Translations under genes and position numbers: made by a program
Source: a virus
Lineage: Duplodnaviria > Caudoviricetes
Length of the DNA: 64,000 nucleotides
IMG/VR virus record: IMGVR_UViG_3300028864_000017
Reading direction: 5' to 3' (one strand)
Part shown: one piece after another, positions 2,773 to 39,656 of the stretch
Position numbering within the stretch: position 1 is the stretch's first letter
Layout: every line of letters begins with the position of its first letter
The notes under the pieces: generated by a model
The model's database searches: none
What the model saw: only the letters and a program-made list of their open reading frames with translations
Told to the model about the DNA's origin: nothing

Positions 2773-3495
2773 ATGGAAATAAAAAGATTTAACGAAGAAA
2801 TAAAAACAGTACCATTCTCAAAAATTGATAAATGGAGTGTTAATAATATACTACAGCCAAAAATTAAAATAGGCAATAAAGAATTAGATTTAAAATTAGG
2901 TTCTAAAGTTTTAGAGTTGTTTAATAATTACGGATTTGATATTAATGTAAATGTATTTGATTGGATGAAAAAACAGCATCTGTTACTGTCAGATGAAACA
3001 AATTTTATTGAAAATAGAGTTGAAGTTGGAAAAAAACAGTCATGGGAAGATTTTCTAGATGATAATGGATACGAATATGATGATTTACCTGAAAATGAAC
3101 AAAAGAAGATAGACGAGGAATTTGAAAATAGAGGATTCGTTAATGATGAAGCAGAAATAGAATTCTCTGTATTTTTACCAGAAAATTTAGAAAATATTGA
3201 ATATGCAGCATTGGCAGATGCTTCTGTATATTTGAAAATTCTATCTGATAGTGAATTAAATGGAGTTTTAAATGGTAATACAGATTATCGTATATTATCA
3301 GATGAACCATTTGGATTTAAAAAATTTTTAAACTTTAAAAAAATAAAAATAACTAATAATAATATTGAAGAAGTTCCAAGTATTGAACATAGACTATACA
3401 AAGATAGTAAAGTGTTTGAGATATTTAAAAGAGAGCTTGGAGGAGATCAAAATTTTAGAAATTTTTTCAATGAATGGTTATCATTAATAAAATAA
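2773..3495 (+). CDS. hypothetical protein
   Basis: 240 aa ORF; starts MEIKRFNEE. Confidence 0.75.
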   Translation: MEIKRFNEEIKTVPFSKIDKWSVNNILQPKIKIGNKELDLKLGSKVLELFNNYGFDINVNVFDWMKKQHLLLSDETNFIENRVEVGKKQSWEDFLDDNGYEYDDLPENEQKKIDEEFENRGFVNDEAEIEFSVFLPENLENIEYAALADASVYLKILSDSELNGVLNGNTDYRILSDEPFGFKKFLNFKKIKITNNNIEEVPSIEHRLYKDSKVFEIFKRELGGDQNFRNFFNEWLSLIK

Positions 3496-3986
3496 TAGAA
3501 ATGATATTTGGATATAAAAAGAAAGAGTTATATGACTCATTTATAATAAATTTCATACCTAATGAAATTGATATGTATTGTGAGCCATTTGGTGGTAACT
3601 ACTGTGTTTTTAATTATTTAAAAATTAAACCTAATTTTTCAATTTATAATGACATAAATACTTATGATAAAAAAATTGATGCTAATATAATTCATCACTT
3701 AGATTATAAAGAAATTTTCAGTATGTATAATACTGAAAATATTTTTTGGTATTTAGACCCTCCATATTATAAAAAAGAATTTTTATATGAAAATTGTGAG
3801 AATTATAATGAAAATTTTCATATAGAACTAAAAAATGAAATTGATAAGCTCAAAGGAAAAGTTATTATATCATATGAGGATAACCAATTCATAAGAAAAT
3901 TATATAAAGATTATAATATTAATAAATATAGTGGAGATAATTTTATTTTTAGAAATGAAATAATAATAACAAATGAGAGAAACTGA
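3474..3986 (+). CDS. short Dam-like DNA adenine methyltransferase (probable start 3501)
   Basis: YCEPFGG (motif I-like), YNDIN, YLDPPYY (motif IV), ISYED, EIIITN; alpha-class order. Confidence 0.7.
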   Translation: MVIINKIIEMIFGYKKKELYDSFIINFIPNEIDMYCEPFGGNYCVFNYLKIKPNFSIYNDINTYDKKIDANIIHHLDYKEIFSMYNTENIFWYLDPPYYKKEFLYENCENYNENFHIELKNEIDKLKGKVIISYEDNQFIRKLYKDYNINKYSGDNFIFRNEIIITNERN

Positions 3987-33844: not shown

Positions 33845-34237
33845 ATGAGAAGAAGAATTTTAGAAACATCAGATGAAATTATACAAGATAAAATATGTAG
33901 ATTTTTAGAAATAAATTTTCATAAAACTGCGATTTTTGAGGACACAAGAGCTAAGAAAGTTTGGCATATTACAAATTCAAAAACTCCTAAAAATTATAAT
34001 TTTTTTAGTGAATTTTCAAAAGAAATACAGGCTATTGAACATAGCAAAGAAGAATATGATAGAGTTCGAAATGAACATGAAAAAATAAAACCAAATATTT
34101 TCATTGGTGGAAATTTTATTGCTGCTGGTGTAGATATTGATGAAGCTATTCAAAGCTTAAAAATGTTAGGTAGACGTAGAGATGAATCATTATTTGAAGT
34201 TGAAGAATTTGACGGTATTTGGATTGCATATGATTAA
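33845..34237 (+). CDS. hypothetical protein
   Basis: ORF track. Confidence 0.7.
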   Translation: MRRRILETSDEIIQDKICRFLEINFHKTAIFEDTRAKKVWHITNSKTPKNYNFFSEFSKEIQAIEHSKEEYDRVRNEHEKIKPNIFIGGNFIAAGVDIDEAIQSLKMLGRRRDESLFEVEEFDGIWIAYD

Positions 34238-34263
34238 AAATTTAATAATTTTAAAAAATAATT

Positions 34264-34464
34264 ATGAAAAAATTTAATAAAATATTTAATAATATTTTCG
34301 TGATATTAGTTATGATATCGAATATTATAATTATGTATAATATTATTATTTTAGATGAACAAATAAGCAACAATTATTTGTTTATCGGATTGTCTGGATT
34401 AATTTTATTTTGTACAGAAATTATAACAAGAGAAATAAAAAACAATAGGAATGAGAACATTTGA
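34264..34464 (+). CDS. small membrane protein (two hydrophobic segments)
   Basis: IFVILVMISNIIIMY and YLFIGLSGLILFC. Confidence 0.6.
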   Translation: MKKFNKIFNNIFVILVMISNIIIMYNIIILDEQISNNYLFIGLSGLILFCTEIITREIKNNRNENI

Positions 34465-34753
34465 AGATTTCACTAAGCAAGAACCAATGTATGTAATTAA
34501 AGTTAAAGATAAGGAATTATATTTAAATAATACATCATTTGGATTTAAAGGTAGTGAGACAACATATAAAATAATTTGTAAATATCCTGAGATTTTTGCA
34601 AGTAGAAGTGATTGTAATGAAACACTATCTTTTTATAAATTAGGAAAAGATAAGATAATCAATGACATATCATTTTTTAATAAAAATGGTGAATTAGAAA
34701 AAGATAATTCGACTGTTGATGACTTAGAAATAAAAAAAATAAAAATAATATAG
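34451..34753 (+). CDS. hypothetical protein
   Basis: ORF track. Confidence 0.7.
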   Translation: MRTFEDFTKQEPMYVIKVKDKELYLNNTSFGFKGSETTYKIICKYPEIFASRSDCNETLSFYKLGKDKIINDISFFNKNGELEKDNSTVDDLEIKKIKII

Positions 34754-34819
34754 TAATATTAGGTATATTGAATAAATTGTATTACTTTTGTACTATAAAT
34801 AATAATTAAAAAATAAATT

Positions 34820-34999
34820 ATGAAATCAAAAAGTGTATTATTAGTTTTCGTTGTTTCTGTGATGTTGTGTAGTTGTTCACAAAATGGACTTTATAATAGT
34901 AAAAATACTCACAAAAACAGCACAAAGAATCATGAAGTCAATTCAAATGGTTTATATGCATATGAATATTTCAAAAATAATACAATATATATTTGGTAG
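34820..34999 (+). CDS. small lipoprotein (59 aa, not in ORF track)
   Basis: MKSKSVLLVFVVSVMLCSC signal peptide II with lipobox; -7 element TACTTTTG at 34783. Confidence 0.7.
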   Translation: MKSKSVLLVFVVSVMLCSCSQNGLYNSKNTHKNSTKNHEVNSNGLYAYEYFKNNTIYIW

Positions 35000-35023
35000 A
35001 TTAAAAACTTTATTGTAATTTTG
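34992..35023 (+). promoter_or_regulatory. Bacteroidota-type promoter, copy 1 of a duplicated 32-bp promoter
   Basis: TTTG-N20-TAATTTTG; 30/32 identical to 35760-35791. Confidence 0.8.
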
Positions 35024-35041
35024 TTTTAAAATATAAGAGAT

Positions 35042-35227
35042 CGGTTGGTAGCTCAATAGGTAGAGCAGTTGGATTAGTTAATTCTAATCGTATTAATAAG
35101 AAAAAATTTTAAAGAAGTAAGTGATTCAATATAATTAGCTAATGTGGAGAATGACTGAAAATGAGAGATTAATATTGTTAATATCATAACAGGCAAAAGA
35201 TAGGGGGTTCGAATCCTTCCCAACTGA
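35042..35227 (+). ncRNA. tRNA-like RNA with about 120-nt insert replacing the anticodon loop (intron-containing tRNA or tRNA mimic)
   Basis: acceptor cggttgg/ccaactg+A, D arm gctc-aataggta-gagc, T arm ggggg-ttcgaat-ccttc; no clean anticodon arm. Confidence 0.7.
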
Positions 35228-35243
35228 CAATAAATTATGAAAA

Positions 35244-35714
35244 ATGGAAAAAATTTTAATATTTAAAAATTTTAAGGATATTCCATTTGGAAAAATATTT
35301 CAAATAAGGTTTAAAGAACCTATGGGAATAAAAGAATGTCCATATTTATATAGATGGACATTAATTATTTTTGGATATTCATTTAGATTACACCACTGGC
35401 TTAGATCAGATGATAGACGTTTTTTTCATGATCACTCATGTGATTTAATATCAATAATAATAAAAGGCAAATACTTTAATGTAATACCAGATGAAAATGG
35501 AAATCCTGTTAAGTATTTAGCTGAAGCATGGAAGCCACGTTTTATGAAAGCAGAACAAAGACATTACTTAGATATACCAAAAGAAGGAGCTTGGACAATT
35601 TTATTGTGTTCAAAATCATATCATAAATGGGGATTCTATGTGAATAATCACAAATGGAGACCATTAAGATATTTTCATAAGTTTGGAATTATTCAAACAG
35701 CAGATTATCAATAA
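35244..35714 (+). CDS. cupin-like protein
   Basis: LHHWL, FHDHSCDLISIIIKG, RHY, WTILL, WGF pattern. Confidence 0.6.
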   Translation: MEKILIFKNFKDIPFGKIFQIRFKEPMGIKECPYLYRWTLIIFGYSFRLHHWLRSDDRRFFHDHSCDLISIIIKGKYFNVIPDENGNPVKYLAEAWKPRFMKAEQRHYLDIPKEGAWTILLCSKSYHKWGFYVNNHKWRPLRYFHKFGIIQTADYQ

Positions 35715-35759
35715 AATATAGTGATTAAATAAAATAAATCGAAAATAATTCAATAAATG

Positions 35760-35791
35760 TTTGGTAGATTGAAAACTTTATTGTACTTTTG
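35760..35791 (+). promoter_or_regulatory. Bacteroidota-type promoter for the leader and tRNA array (copy 2)
   Basis: TTTG-N20-TACTTTTG. Confidence 0.8.
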
Positions 35792-35892
35792 TACTATCAT
35801 ATTAAAAGAAATCAAAAATAGAAAAAAATGATATTTTTTCTATTATATATAACAAAGAATAAAAAACATAACAAGATAAAATTTTAGAAATC

Positions 35893-36000
35893 ATGAGAGC
35901 AATAAGTAAACATAGTAGTTCATCAAAATCCTTTAAATTCTGGTTTAGAAAAACCAAGTTTGGAACAGATACTTCTTGTCTTATTGTTAATATAAGCTAA
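35893..36000 (+). CDS. putative attenuator leader peptide (35 aa) MRAISKHSSSSKSFKFWFRKTKFGTDTSCLIVNIS
   Basis: A-rich leader then ATG; codons 5-23 are 17/19 Ser/Lys/His/Phe/Trp, matching the downstream tRNAs. Confidence 0.75.
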   Translation: MRAISKHSSSSKSFKFWFRKTKFGTDTSCLIVNIS

Positions 36001-36037
36001 CATTAATAAATGTAAAAAAGAAATATAAATCCAAACT
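35957..36037 (+). promoter_or_regulatory. putative antiterminator
   Basis: agtttgga (35957-35964) is complementary to terminator 5' arm tccaaact (36030-36037); inner helices ttctt/aagaa, cttat/ataag, acatt/aatgt. Confidence 0.65.
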
Positions 36038-36058
36038 CAAAAAGTTTGGATTTTTTTT
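36028..36058 (+). terminator. intrinsic terminator (attenuator) in front of the tRNA array
   Basis: aatccaaact-caaaa-agtttggatt followed by a U tract. Confidence 0.88.
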
Positions 36059-36101
36059 GTTTAAATAAGTTCTTTGAAATATTAGATATGAAATAAATTA
36101 T

Positions 36102-36186
36102 GTACCTGGAGCTCGGTTGGAGACGTAAGTCGTTGAGCCAATGTCTTTTAAACATTAGGTCGTGGGTTCAAGTCCCATCAGGTACA
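36102..36186 (+). tRNA. tRNA-Lys(UUU) with enlarged D loop
   Basis: gtacctg/caggtac; aatgt-ctTTTaa-acatt; T loop ttcaagt; 20-nt D loop containing gac-gtaa-gtc. Confidence 0.85.
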
Positions 36187-36190
36187 CAAT

Positions 36191-36263
36191 GGACCGTTAG
36201 CTCAGTTGGTAGAGCTTAAAACTTTTAATTTTAAGGTCGTGAGTTCAAATCTCACACGGTTCA
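36191..36263 (+). tRNA. tRNA-Lys(UUU)
   Basis: ggaccgt/acggttc; taaaa-ctTTTaa-tttta; canonical D and T arms. Confidence 0.93.
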
Positions 36264-36392
36264 CATTTGTCATAGTGGATGACAGTTATTCAGTTAGGCT
36301 GGGCATAAAAATTATCCATCGGAATGGTGAGAAGCTATTATAAAAAATAAATATAAAATCATGGGGTAAAGTTAGATTTCGACAAAAAATTT

Positions 36393-36704
36393 ATGACACA
36401 AAGAGATGAAACAGGACGATTCATTGTTAAGTCATTAAAAACAGGTAAAAGTTATTATGTGGAACCAATTGGTTCAAAAAGATCATCAAGTTGGGGATCA
36501 TATAATCCAAGTACAGGTGATATTGAACATAAAAAAGGATATGATAAATATTCAGGTGCAATATCAGAAGATGAAAGCCTAATTACAAAAGAAAATGGAT
36601 TTGAAGATATTACATATTCAGGAATAGGTGTTTCACCATTCTCAGTGATTGAGAAATTAGATTTAGAATATGAAAGAAAAATAATACTTGATAAAAACAA
36701 GTAA
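36393..36704 (+). CDS. hypothetical protein within the tRNA array
   Basis: ETGRFIVKSLKTGKSYYVEPIG...ITKENGF; open frame with A-rich leader. Confidence 0.8.
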   Translation: MTQRDETGRFIVKSLKTGKSYYVEPIGSKRSSSWGSYNPSTGDIEHKKGYDKYSGAISEDESLITKENGFEDITYSGIGVSPFSVIEKLDLEYERKIILDKNK

Positions 36705-36712
36705 TGGTATAA

Positions 36713-36787
36713 GGGAAGGTAGCTCCAAATGAGTAGAGCATCACGTTGAAGCCGTGAGTGTTATGGGTTCGAGTCCCATTCTTCCCA
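36713..36787 (+). tRNA. tRNA-Phe(GAA)
   Basis: gggaagg/tcttccc; tcacg-ttGAAgc-cgtga; T loop ttcgagt. Confidence 0.92.
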
Positions 36788-36796
36788 CAAAAATAT

Positions 36797-36877
36797 GCGT
36801 CAGTATGCAAGTGGCTAAAGCTGTTGGTCTCCAAAACCAATCCGTAAGGTTCGTGGGTTCAAATCCTGCCTGGCGTG
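36797..36877 (+). tRNA. tRNA-Trp(CCA) with long variable region
   Basis: gcgtcag/ctggcgt; ttggt-ctCCAaa-accaa; 12-nt variable region. Confidence 0.88.
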
Positions 36878-36910
36878 CAATGATATTCTAAGAGTAGAAT
36901 ATTATAACTT

Positions 36911-37001
36911 GGAAGTATAAGCCCAGTTGGTCTAAGGGTAGCTGTCCTGAAAACAGTAGGTCGCTAAAAACGGCGTGTGGGTTCAAGTCCTACTACTTCC
37001 G
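36911..37001 (+). tRNA. tRNA-Ser(UGA), C at position 33
   Basis: ggaagta/tacttcc+G; gctgt-ccTGAaa-acagt; long variable arm. Confidence 0.88.
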
Positions 37002-37009
37002 CAAAAAAT

Positions 37010-37097
37010 GGTAAGTTAAGCAGTCAATTGGAGTGGCGACTAGCCTTGAAAACTAGGTTTCGTTTAATCGGATGGGGGTCGGGTCCTCAACTTACCG
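37010..37097 (+). tRNA. tRNA-Ser(UGA), divergent T loop
   Basis: ggtaagt/acttacc+G; ctagc-ctTGAaa-actag; long variable arm; T loop gtcgggt. Confidence 0.78.
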
Positions 37098-37111
37098 CAA
37101 ATTATTAAAAA

Positions 37112-37184
37112 GGAGATTAAGCTAATCTGGTGAAAGCGTATGCCTGAAGAGCATGAGAGATTGGATCAAAACCAATAATCTCCA
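37112..37184 (+). tRNA. tRNA-Phe(GAA), divergent T loop
   Basis: ggagatt/aatctcc; tatgc-ctGAAga-gcatg; T arm attgg-atcaaaa-ccaat. Confidence 0.85.
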
Positions 37185-37189
37185 CATAA

Positions 37190-37280
37190 GGAAAATTAAG
37201 TCCATAATTGGTATTGGCGCAGTTTGCTAAACTGTTCATCGAGTTAAATCGGTGTGAGGGTCCAAGTCCCCCATTTTCCG
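37190..37280 (+). tRNA. tRNA-Ser(GCU)
   Basis: ggaaaat/attttcc+G; gcagt-ttGCTaa-actgt; long variable arm. Confidence 0.85.
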
Positions 37281-37309
37281 CAAATATTCAGAATGTGAAT
37301 ATTATATAT

Positions 37310-37397
37310 GTCACTTGTAGTCGGTAAGGGATGCCGCCCTGATTGTGGTTCAGGAATACTTAATAGTTAATGTGGGTTCGAATCCCATCTGGTGACC
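37310..37397 (+). tRNA. tRNA-His(GUG) with long variable region
   Basis: cctga-ttGTGgt-tcagg; T arm gtggg-ttcgaat-cccat; about 17-nt variable insert. Confidence 0.8.
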
Positions 37398-37405
37398 AAA
37401 TATAT

Positions 37406-37480
37406 GGTGGATATAGTGTTAGCGGTTAGCACGTTAGGTTGTGGTCCTAAAAGGTTCGGTTCGAATCCGAATATTCACCC
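37406..37480 (+). tRNA. tRNA-His(GUG)
   Basis: ggtggata/tattcacc; ttagg-ttGTGgt-cctaa; T loop ttcgaat. Confidence 0.92.
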
Positions 37481-37486
37481 CAAAAA

Positions 37487-37577
37487 AAAGATTATTGATG
37501 AAGTGCTGGAAGCCTTAGTTCGATTCTGATAGTCACTGATTAGTCATCAGTAAAGGTTGACAACCTTTGTAATCTTT
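37487..37577 (+). ncRNA. structured RNA with T-loop-like arm, no anticodon arm
   Basis: closing stem aaagatta/taatcttt; ttag-ttcgatt-ctga; actgat/atcagt; aaaggt/accttt. Confidence 0.5.
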
Positions 37578-37591
37578 TTTGACATTAAAAT

Positions 37592-37663
37592 GCTCTTGTA
37601 GCTTAATGGTAGAGCTGTTCCCTCTTAAGGAAAGGGTTGTGGGTTCGATTCCCACCAAGAGCA
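37592..37663 (+). tRNA. tRNA-Lys(CUU)
   Basis: gctcttg/caagagc; gttcc-ctCTTaa-ggaaa; T loop ttcgatt. Confidence 0.92.
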
Positions 37664-37667
37664 CAAA

Positions 37668-38411
37668 TCATAAAAATTTACTGTGTATATCTGCTTCCCA
37701 TTCATTTGAAGGATATGTTAGTTCTCTTACATCAAATATTTCAGAAATATAATAATCTCCGTTTCTTCTTCTACTATATCCTAAAACTGAATCATATCCA
37801 GCATCTCTAACAGAATTTGCTATTATATTTTCTTGGATTGCATATCTTATTAGATTTGATTGTTTACTATTTATTATCATATCATATCCTAAATCACAAT
37901 TTTCACTATAATCAGATTTTTTATTGTATTTAGTTAATAATTCTCCTATATTCTCTGGTTGTATATTACGTTTTCTTAATATGAACTCGTAAATATCATT
38001 TAATAATTTTTTATTTGAACCTTTTCCATTAATTTTATCATATGCATTTTCAGGTACTTTACCGCCAGTAGCTCCTTTTATAAAAAGTGGATTTTTTAAT
38101 AAAATTTCACCTTCGTATTTATCTGTTCCTCCATATCCACTTTTTCCTCCTCTATATTCTTTGATGTTTTTATCTTCAATTGGTAGATAGAATACACCAG
38201 TTCTTATTGATGTTTCTCCGTCTTGTTCTGGCTTTTGGTAACGAACAACATTTAGTAATAGTCCATCATCTAATATTTTTGTTCCTGTTGTATTTTCTAC
38301 AGCTGACATAAAAATTTCGTCATTTAATGGTAATTCTGTTTTATATTTTAGTGATCTTGTTCTATCAGGTGATATATGTTCATTGATAAATATTTCAAAT
38401 TTTGTTTTCAT
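37668..38411 (-). CDS. hypothetical protein, possibly ADP-ribosyltransferase-like fold
   Basis: VRYQ...GVFYL...YGG...LKNPL...AGYDSV pattern; N-terminus MKTKFEIFINE. Confidence 0.45.
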   Translation of the reverse strand: MKTKFEIFINEHISPDRTRSLKYKTELPLNDEIFMSAVENTTGTKILDDGLLLNVVRYQKPEQDGETSIRTGVFYLPIEDKNIKEYRGGKSGYGGTDKYEGEILLKNPLFIKGATGGKVPENAYDKINGKGSNKKLLNDIYEFILRKRNIQPENIGELLTKYNKKSDYSENCDLGYDMIINSKQSNLIRYAIQENIIANSVRDAGYDSVLGYSRRRNGDYYISEIFDVRELTYPSNEWEADIHSKFL

Positions 38412-38474
38412 ATTTGTATATATTAATAAACAAATTTAGATTTTTTAAATAGATAATAAATATAAAAAATAAAA

Positions 38475-39248
38475 ATGTACTACGTAATACAAGAAAATAC
38501 TTTCAAAGAAGAAAATTATGATAATTTAGTTGAAACATTAGATAGAATGAAATTACCTTATGAAGTAGTTAAGGTTTTGCCATTTGTAGAAGATTTTGAG
38601 TTTAAAACTAATAGAAAAGATGTATTTTGCTTTGGTTCTGTTAAAATGGCAAGATTAGCAAAAAAATACAAATGGTTTCCTGGTTCTCAATTGAATGATA
38701 ATCATGATTATAGAGTTTATAGTAAATATTACAAGGAAAATTTGTTGAATTATGATTCAATAGTTCAAAAATTTGGAGATGATATTAATGAAAGGACTTT
38801 ATTTTTTGCTAGACCGTGTGAAGATACAAAAACATTTACTGGAAAGGTATTTGATATGTATGAATGGATAGAATTTAGAGATAATCATTTGAATAGTGAA
38901 TATGAAACTTCATTAACAAAAGATACTGATATTCAAGTTAGTTCTGTTAAAAAAATAACAAAAGAATTTAGGTTTTGGATAGTTGGAGGAAAAGTTGTGA
39001 CTGGAAGTCTATATAGAATGGGATATTTTATTAATAGAAGTGAATTAGTTGATGATGGAGCATTAGAATTTTGCAAAGAAATGGTTAGTATTTATAATAT
39101 ATCAAATTCTTTTGTGATGGATATTTGTGAAGTGATTATTGATGGTAATCCTGAATATAAAATAATTGAATTGGGATGTATTAATTCGGCAGGTTTTTAT
39201 TCTGCAAATATGCCTAAGTTAATTAATGCTCTTGAAGAAGAATTTTAA
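38475..39248 (+). CDS. ATP-grasp domain protein (R2K/DUF4343-like)
   Basis: FARPCEDTKTFTG, EFRFWIVGGKVVTGSLY, FVMDI, IIELGCINSAGFY. Confidence 0.85.
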   Translation: MYYVIQENTFKEENYDNLVETLDRMKLPYEVVKVLPFVEDFEFKTNRKDVFCFGSVKMARLAKKYKWFPGSQLNDNHDYRVYSKYYKENLLNYDSIVQKFGDDINERTLFFARPCEDTKTFTGKVFDMYEWIEFRDNHLNSEYETSLTKDTDIQVSSVKKITKEFRFWIVGGKVVTGSLYRMGYFINRSELVDDGALEFCKEMVSIYNISNSFVMDICEVIIDGNPEYKIIELGCINSAGFYSANMPKLINALEEEF

Positions 39249-39263
39249 AAAATTATATATTAT

Positions 39264-39656
39264 ATGAGAGATGGTAAGAATGCTAAAGTTGAATTTTTGA
39301 GTACAATATCAAGCTACAAATTGATAGCATCAGAAATAAATTATAGAGATATAGATGGAATTGAGCATGATATTAAATTAAAACCATTATTCAATAAAAA
39401 TGAATATGATATTTTTTTAGAATCATTGAATCATGAATATGATGATGGATTTGGTGGTCAAAATTTATATGGTGTAATATTTTGTGAAGATGCAGTATGG
39501 ATGCAAAGAGGCGAATATGATGGTAGTGAATGGTGGGATACCTATCAATATCCTGATATGAGGAAATCATTTACTGAGTCAGATGTTCTAAAATATGAAA
39601 GAAATAAAAAATTGAAAGTTATTGGTGAATTATCTCAAAACAGGACCATCATCTAA
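39264..39656 (+). CDS. hypothetical phage protein
   Basis: YDDGFGGQNLYG, WMQRGEYDGSEWW motifs. Confidence 0.8.
   Translation: MRDGKNAKVEFLSTISSYKLIASEINYRDIDGIEHDIKLKPLFNKNEYDIFLESLNHEYDDGFGGQNLYGVIFCEDAVWMQRGEYDGSEWWDTYQYPDMRKSFTESDVLKYERNKKLKVIGELSQNRTII

Follow-up and report, generated by a model that had tools for sequence, protein, structure and literature searches.

In the leaders trpL, hisL and pheL, runs of identical codons serve to sense a single amino acid, and the multivalent enterobacterial attenuators respond to several, the ilvGMEDA leader to Ile, Leu and Val and the thr leader to Thr and Ile. In E. coli, the pheST attenuator, with its pheM leader, places an aminoacyl-tRNA synthetase under attenuation control. 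So could tRNA genes themselves be controlled in this fashion? Here we examine a locus within 64,000 nucleotides of DNA (hereinafter, the window) from a virus (Duplodnaviria; Caudoviricetes; IMG/VR record IMGVR_UViG_3300028864_000017), in which a promoter, a 35-codon leader open reading frame (ORF) and an intrinsic terminator precede an array of tRNA genes. An earlier reading of these letters (the original prediction) compared this layout to trp/his-type attenuation. The sequence comparisons described below suggest that the locus is quite probably a ribosome-mediated leader-peptide transcription attenuator that controls the phage tRNA array.

The features of the attenuator class include a short leader ORF between the promoter and the first gene, codons that report on the product, an intervening terminator and a mutually exclusive antiterminator, and all of these are found here. 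The departure lies downstream, where tRNAs and an ORF of 103 amino acids (aa) take the place of genes for amino acid biosynthesis or aminoacyl-tRNA synthetases. The likeness to ilvGMEDA and thr is the closest and consists in a short leader ORF with several kinds of regulatory codons, a terminator in front of the first structural gene, an alternative antiterminator helix formed with the 5' arm of this terminator, and an OR-logic over several amino acids. However, ilvGMEDA and thr regulate biosynthetic enzymes whereas the phage locus would regulate tRNAs, whose products act directly on the sensed step; furthermore, it is phage-borne, probably in a Bacteroidota host, shows no sequence homology to these leaders, and has an ORF that, in the window, extends past the antiterminator strand (region 2). 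With trpL, hisL and pheL, the locus would share the four-segment logic (1:2, 2:3, 3:4, with the 1:2 pairing predicted) in which a stalled ribosome frees region 2, and it has a terminator that is more stable than the antiterminator, the decision presumably being kinetic; unlike these leaders, each devoted to one amino acid, the phage leader interleaves the codons for five. The pheST attenuator is similar in that it acts on a component of the translation machinery and senses the level of charged tRNA, but it is chromosomal, senses one amino acid only and has a synthetase as its target instead of tRNA genes. The T-box riboswitches also sense tRNA status through a terminator/antiterminator switch upstream of translation-related genes; they bind uncharged tRNA directly, via a specifier codon, and require neither ribosome nor ORF. 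An Rfam scan of positions 34000-39500 (E <= 1) returned only tRNAs and chance-level matches, with no leader family and no T-box or other cis-regulatory family. The new element is the nature of the regulated genes, namely tRNAs, and the logic is that of the multivalent leader-peptide attenuators (ilvGMEDA, thr) and of pheST. We found no published account of the attenuation of tRNA genes in phages in the full-text literature.

Codon composition of the leader and the tRNA array

The seven anticodons that the original prediction assigned to the array (UUU, CUU, GAA, CCA, UGA, GCU and GUG) are all there. The amino acid set used to score the leader (Ser, Lys, His, Phe and Trp, with a six-frame background frequency of 0.27) was taken from the array and not from the leader itself. 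Within the leader stretch SKHSSSSKSFKFWFRKTKF, 17 of the 19 codons belong to this set, exactly as had been claimed, and this stretch comes out on top of the 40,539 stop-free 19-codon windows in the six frames of the 64 kb. All other windows that score 16 or more overlap it, and the best independent stretch reaches 15. The cognate codons are located mostly in the front part of the leader, with 15 of the 20 codons at positions 2-21 being cognate compared to 4 of the 14 from region 2 onward. The antiterminator segment opens with leader codon 22, the sole AAG codon, which corresponds to the CUU anticodon.

The predicted antiterminator of the window

The terminator stem differs only slightly in its boundaries from that originally given (36028-36058), and the complement to its 5' arm within the ORF was also part of the original prediction. 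The duplex between this segment, AGTTTGGA (35957-35964), and the 5' arm TCCAAACT (36030-36037) has a calculated energy of -9.9 kcal/mol that is matched by only 0.3% of dinucleotide shuffles and 0.9% of natural stretches of 131 nucleotides (nt), so that the proposed pairing withstands both comparisons. Before region 3 is transcribed, the leader is predicted to form a long hairpin of -20.2 kcal/mol, with region 2 paired to 35932-35939, the local hairpin amounting to -8.5 kcal/mol. Once region 3 has emerged, the antiterminator state becomes the minimum-energy structure at -22.7 kcal/mol, and the predicted 1:2 pairing is 2.5 kcal/mol less stable than this state. If the transcript is truncated at the terminator loop, upstream pairing of the 5' arm has a probability of ~0.87 with the ribosome absent or on codons 1-17; a footprint over region 2 (codons 19-29) lowers this value to 0.05-0.2. 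Within the 5' arm, the eight loop-proximal nucleotides are taken up by the antiterminator, and it is there that the terminator hairpin has to nucleate.

Co-variation among related cassettes

The 156-aa gene upstream of the cassette was used as the query to collect relatives and recovered 20 IMG/VR loci, many of which are located on contigs of 140-676 kb. A large protein encoded in the window is 36-45% identical to proteins of 'uncultured phage' GenBank records of 636-735 kb, and the window DNA occurs in peat metagenomes. Among GenBank phages, a nucleotide search yielded matches at the tRNA level only, and a degenerate DNA pattern for the peptide FKFWFRKT recovered the same close clade along with one chance match, L029, inside an unrelated gene without tRNAs. 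The closest relatives, L001 and L004, retain the whole cassette, with mostly synonymous differences in the ORF; in the case of L001, these are four synonymous changes and a switch of the stop codon from TAA to TGA, with zero replacements. More generally, in orthologous leader pairs, changes in the control region are mostly synonymous, which lends indirect support to translation of the leader, and the tails drift or shift frame. The first tRNA follows the terminator after 16 nt in L001 and L004, and after 5-30 nt in most relatives, a spacing too short to accommodate a promoter.

A composition-blind pipeline, in which a terminator is sought up to 400 nt upstream of a tRNA on the same strand and the longest ATG ORF ending no more than 90 nt before this terminator is taken as the leader, was applied to the related huge-phage contigs. 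At least eight further cassettes consisting of a promoter, a leader, a terminator and tRNAs were detected, including one or more on L001's own contig and others on distant contigs. The amino acid content of the leaders follows that of the arrays behind them (Table 1), the combinations being Thr/Ala/Gln/Gly/Pro/Arg, Asn/Ile/Tyr/Cys/Glu and Leu/Asn/Met/Asp. That of L035 is rich in T/A/Q/G/P/R, matching its own array; that of L032 contains 13 Asn together with I/Y/C/E and uses the rare CGC codon twice, the array including Arg(ACG); and in the L034 family, compared to the window, Ile and Val are gained in the leader and in the array alike. The leader peptides cannot be aligned across array types, so it is the composition that is conserved and not the sequence. 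In the matrix of leader-by-array matches for nine cassettes, the diagonal mean is 0.60 vs 0.28 off the diagonal (permutation p = 5e-6, a value that overstates the independence of the units), and the empirical composition p-values of the individual units range from 1e-4 to 0.06. Thus, the co-variation of leader codon content with the tRNA set, which had been put forward as a check in related phages, is indeed observed.

The second component of the proposed switch follows the same pattern. All nine cassettes hold, in the 3' part of the ORF, a complement to the 5' arm of their own terminator, the antiterminator segments including AAGAACTG, TGACTGG, GGCAGGG, GCTGAGTG and AATCGGG besides that of the window. 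In the 9x9 matrix of duplex energies, the diagonal is the best in all nine rows, with a mean of -12.7 vs -6.8 kcal/mol (p < 1e-5). The ratio of duplex energy to terminator self-energy is 0.41 +/- 0.15 (90th percentile, 0.58) for 46 control terminators without following tRNAs, compared to 0.56-0.86 for the leader-bearing cassettes and 0.85 for the window; tRNA-proximal terminators that lack a leader resemble the controls. The distance from the leader stop codon to the terminator is 21-32 nt in all nine cassettes. Across the cassettes, 157 of the 224 residues upstream of region 2 (70%) are cognate to the array, in contrast to 23 of the 74 from region 2 onward (31%). Taken together, the leader composition that tracks the array and the antiterminator segment that co-varies with each terminator support the trp/his-type interpretation.

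No RNA data set was listed as containing the 2-kb stretch. In two RNA-labelled runs with a low share of it, a metatranscriptome contig from a relative with ~94% identity covers 35744-35996, and another covers 36333-36546; these were not used as evidence because they give no starts, ends or levels and might come from DNA carry-over. Suppressor tRNA(CUA) genes are present in some relatives, and TAG closes several leaders (L012, L014 and L015; L035, L039, L040 and L042); the window leader ends in TAA. In L032, an ORF of ~229 aa with repeated CxxC and histidine motifs, noted by eye, lies between two leader cassettes in the tRNA region (3008-3695) and may be a homing-endonuclease-like insert.

A cultured phage with the same layout

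The same arrangement is found in a cultured virus, Cellulophaga phage phi38:1 (KC821614; L047), where the leader MKTIMNIATDIRTKGVKLLGRSRVL at 2265-2342 is followed, 30 nt later, by a terminator and then by annotated tRNAs for Lys, Ile, Gly, Asp, Thr, Val and Arg. The gene gp066 is annotated from an upstream TTG, but a start at the ATG at 2265 yields a leader that corresponds to the seven annotated tRNAs behind it. Directly after the terminator of this cassette (2265-2400), a further tRNA-like sequence that lacks an annotation is located at 2401-2478.

All these observations seem to be best accommodated by a common scheme. Judging from the co-varying sequences, it is likely that tRNA genes are grouped into arrays by amino acid in the huge phages of this clade and in at least one cultured Cellulophaga phage, each major array being placed behind its own codon-matched leader-peptide attenuator. 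The transcription of every such array would be set by the speed at which ribosomes decode the matching codons. This would be a case of product-feedback control and the first one in which tRNA genes are subject to ribosome-mediated attenuation.

Proposed mechanism and alternatives

Under the attenuation scenario, transcription would start at the Bacteroidota-type promoter, and we infer that a ribosome translates the 35-codon leader, in which Ser, Lys, His, Phe and Trp codons make up the first two thirds. When decoding is fast, the ribosome would pass over region 2, which could then re-pair with region 1 behind it; with region 2 so held, the 5' arm of the terminator would be free to fold with the 3' arm, and the polymerase would stop at 36054-36061. 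When the decoding of any control codon is slow, the ribosome would stall on codons 5-17, with charged tRNA made scarce by loss of host tRNAs, by the codon-usage mismatch of a phage with 25% GC, by starvation or by tRNA cleavage. Region 1 would then be covered and region 2 free to capture the 5' arm of the terminator as it emerges, and transcription would continue into the small ORF and the eleven tRNA genes. The resulting products would relieve the stall, which amounts to a negative feedback on tRNA supply with an OR-logic over five amino acids.

Several observations weigh against this scenario. Two of the nine composition tests for individual units stand at p = 0.06, and the cassettes are related by descent, with about four array types, so that permutation p-values overstate their independence. 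Some small tRNA groups in the relatives follow ordinary gene-end terminators without a leader; thus, the tRNA-proximal terminators at L034 7788, L039(-) 7635 and L042 8132 come after ordinary protein genes and have neither a leader nor a complement, which implies that some tRNA groups are not gated. Between the terminator and the first tRNA of the window, there is a conserved box with a weak sigma70-like match that might be a bypass promoter. In the window, region 2 is no longer masked once the ribosome has reached the stop codon. Finally, when the full terminator is present, the terminator state is favoured over the antiterminator state (-33.8 vs -27.1 kcal/mol, with a terminator probability of ~0.95), and equilibrium folding with ribosome footprints yields no switch, the terminator probability being 0.67-1.0 at every position in all nine units. 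A thermodynamic switch therefore has to be rejected because the terminator wins at equilibrium wherever the ribosome sits. Given that the terminator is favoured for any position of the ribosome, we infer that the switch has to be a kinetic one, as in trp. Five cassettes show the classic geometry, with an ORF that stops at region 2, so that a ribosome at the stop codon would mask it. In the window and in the L034 family, the ORF continues for about ten codons beyond region 2, so that termination after full translation would rely on the predicted 1:2 re-pairing.

What other explanations could account for these findings? One possibility, which we consider unlikely as the main driver, is that the cassette evolved primarily as a counter-defence sensor, such that cleavage of tRNA-Lys and other tRNAs by anticodon nucleases of the PrrC or PARIS type would release replacement tRNAs. 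Phage tRNAs can substitute for tRNAs that are cleaved by host defences, the proposed mechanism would respond to such cleavage, and Lys tRNAs (two isoacceptors in three copies) both head and close the array. However, almost every amino acid is represented among the other cassettes of the clade (Gly, Ala, Pro, Thr, Gln, Asn, Ile, Leu, Met, Asp and Glu among them), which points to general control of supply rather than to specific nuclease targets, and no defence or anti-defence gene is tied to the locus. Moreover, decoding slowed by any other cause would have the same effect.

It is still less probable that translation of the leader controls the array through another read-out or with the opposite polarity, either because a ribosome near the polymerase suppresses termination or because a stalled ribosome leaves the RNA open to Rho or RNases, in which case the tRNA output would fall when decoding is slow. 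Such a scheme would be in line with the equilibrium folding, which lacks a ribosome-dependent switch, and with the conserved gap of 21-32 nt between stop codon and terminator, a distance on which termination efficiency is reported to depend (PMC4824070). At such a distance, however, a ribosome at the stop codon cannot reach the hairpin, and the conserved complement that each ORF contains to the 5' arm of its terminator, and that co-varies with this arm, would be left unexplained, as would the placement of cognate codons upstream of this complement; furthermore, a positive feedback on tRNA supply makes less regulatory sense.

A further alternative is that the leader ORF constitutes a separate small gene, or a short RNA, under its own promoter and with an ordinary terminator; the tRNAs would then be expressed by leak-through or from a different promoter, and the match of the codons would be coincidental or compositional. 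This appears highly improbable. In its favour, the terminator is strong and favoured at equilibrium, the conserved box with its weak sigma70-like match lies 3' of it, and the same type of promoter appears to drive ordinary small ORFs and a tRNA directly. Against it, the cognate codon run is the most extreme in the window, the composition of the leader and not its peptide sequence is conserved and changes with the array, an antiterminator complement that the 46 control terminators lack co-varies with each terminator, and the tRNA of L001 and L004 starts only 16 nt after the terminator.

Promoter, neighbouring genes and other features

The features of the cassette and its relatives are given in Table 1. 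The promoter, originally placed at the same coordinates, fits the primary-sigma consensus of Bacteroidota that was used here (-33 TTTG and -7 TAnnTTTG, ~19-21 nt apart). In its loose form, this motif is not rare, with 11 matches in the window vs 5.95 expected; the extended box recurs at 34992-35023 and is kept in the relatives L001, L004 and L032. This second copy is located 19 nt 5' of a tRNA-Met(CAU)-like gene (35042-35228) with an anticodon loop interrupted by an insert of ~110 nt, which is found by ARAGORN only when introns are allowed and has no Rfam match. The G+C content of the 64-kb window is 24.7%, and the 35-codon ORF is present where it had been predicted. An element of the TATATATAA type in the 5' untranslated region (5'UTR) precedes most leaders in the relatives; its interpretation as a conserved upstream ORF was rejected, given that frames and starts vary among the cassettes when compared by eye.

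The post-terminator box, TTCTTTGAAATAyTr, is kept in three cassettes (36070-36084 in the window, L032 3936-3950 and L039 7386-7400 (-)) and is absent from L001 and L004, the closest relatives of the window; it may serve for processing or as a bypass promoter.

The tRNA array occupies 36109-37664, and ARAGORN detects 7 tRNAs in it by default and 10 when relaxed. The original count of 11 is a fair one, with the caveat that two members are degenerate and that one of these, the Ser(UGA)-like copy, is missed by the tRNA finders. A weak match to Y RNA (YrlA) at 36134-36250, with 34 bits against a cut-off of 69, probably reflects likeness to tRNA. Just 5' of the last tRNA, the stretch 37490-37590 contains a tRNA fragment resembling a T-arm and, behind it, a hairpin and a T-run that may be an internal terminator. 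The 103-aa ORF is 98% identical in L001 and 87% identical in L004. The 156-aa protein encoded upstream of the promoter (35244-35714) matches PHROG 4786 ('cysteine dioxygenase', E = 5e-25), and its homologues adjoin tRNA arrays in many huge-phage contigs.

Table 1. Features of the window cassette and of related cassettes (positions refer to the window unless a locus is named)
Feature	Position	Strand	Remarks
Bacteroidota-type promoter, TTTG-N20-TACTTTTG	35760..35791	+	-33 TTTG, 20-nt spacer, -7 TACTTTTG; predicted from consensus
5'UTR element, A-run/T-run inverted repeat followed by TATATATAA	35818..35852	+	single occurrence in the 64-kb window
Leader ORF, 35 codons and TAA stop	35893..36000	+	encodes MRAISKHSSSSKSFKFWFRKTKFGTDTSCLIVNIS
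Control codons 5-21, SKHSSSSKSFKFWFRKT	35905..35955	+	stall here would leave region 2 free
Region 1, UUUAAAUU	35932..35939	+	predicted to sequester region 2 unless covered by a ribosome
Region 2, antiterminator strand AGUUUGGA	35957..35964	+	duplicates terminator 3' arm
Intrinsic terminator hairpin	36027..36053	+	11-bp stem; region 3, 36027-36037; loop; region 4, 36043-36053; -11.3 kcal/mol
Terminator U-tract	36054..36061	+	
Post-terminator box TTCTTTGAAATATTA	36070..36084	+	conserved; overlaps weak sigma70-like match
Degenerate tRNA-Lys(UUU)-like gene, oversized D region	36109..36187	+	relaxed ARAGORN; Rfam 26.3 bits, below cut-off
tRNA-Lys(UUU)	36191..36264	+	default ARAGORN, Rfam
103-aa ORF inside the array	36393..36704	+	no family in Pfam or PHROGs
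tRNA-Phe(GAA)	36713..36788	+	default ARAGORN, Rfam
tRNA-Trp(CCA)	36797..36878	+	default ARAGORN, Rfam
tRNA-Ser(UGA)	36911..37002	+	default ARAGORN, Rfam
Ser(UGA)-like degenerate tRNA copy	37009..37101	+	aligns with both Ser tRNAs; undetected by ARAGORN and Rfam
tRNA-Phe(GAA), second copy	37112..37185	+	Rfam; relaxed ARAGORN
tRNA-Ser(GCU)	37191..37281	+	relaxed ARAGORN
tRNA-His(GUG), long form	37311..37397	+	default ARAGORN
tRNA-His(GUG)	37407..37482	+	default ARAGORN, Rfam
tRNA-Lys(CUU), last gene of the array	37592..37664	+	default ARAGORN, Rfam
5'UTR element copies in relatives	L032 2174-2204; L034 2433-2464; L035 2163-2193; L038 2292-2323; L016 1535-1566		
L032 leader MNNMNNIYRIYRNCNINYNMEEICINMNNDYINDDENIVRRTG			array: Glu, Asn, Asn, Cys, Ile, Ile, Tyr, Arg(ACG)
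L035 / L040 leader MMRFTTYTTATTAPQQGAGQGRTAQPRG...			array: Gly, Ala, Gln, Pro, Thr, Arg, Gly
L038 / L036 leader MLLCNLYNMYLNNLENDKTLGRDILCIS			array: Leu, Asp, Asn, Met, Glu, Tyr
L016 leader MKTWTNIELTTSLETTDNDQKLIGNGM			array: Thr, Glu, Met, Asn, Leu, Asp
L034 / L039 / L042 leader MLNSFSHISSIVSSVKRHKWFISHNGTGLY...			array: Ser, Trp, Ile, Val, His, Phe, Lys

Implications

Why phages carry tRNA genes and how the expression of these genes is controlled is an open question, and the cassettes described here suggest that the ribosome itself tunes the supply of tRNAs to the demand. For this question, phi38:1 growing on Cellulophaga baltica is a tractable cultured system. Should the attenuation scenario hold, the 103-aa ORF inside the window array would share its regulation with the tRNAs, and compact, programmable sensors of decoding speed with multiple inputs would be available. 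The sequence signature of the leaders would predict which codons limit a phage in its host. Furthermore, the grouping of the tRNA genes of huge phages by amino acid would be explained, and the attenuation principle would extend from amino acid metabolism to the decoding machinery.

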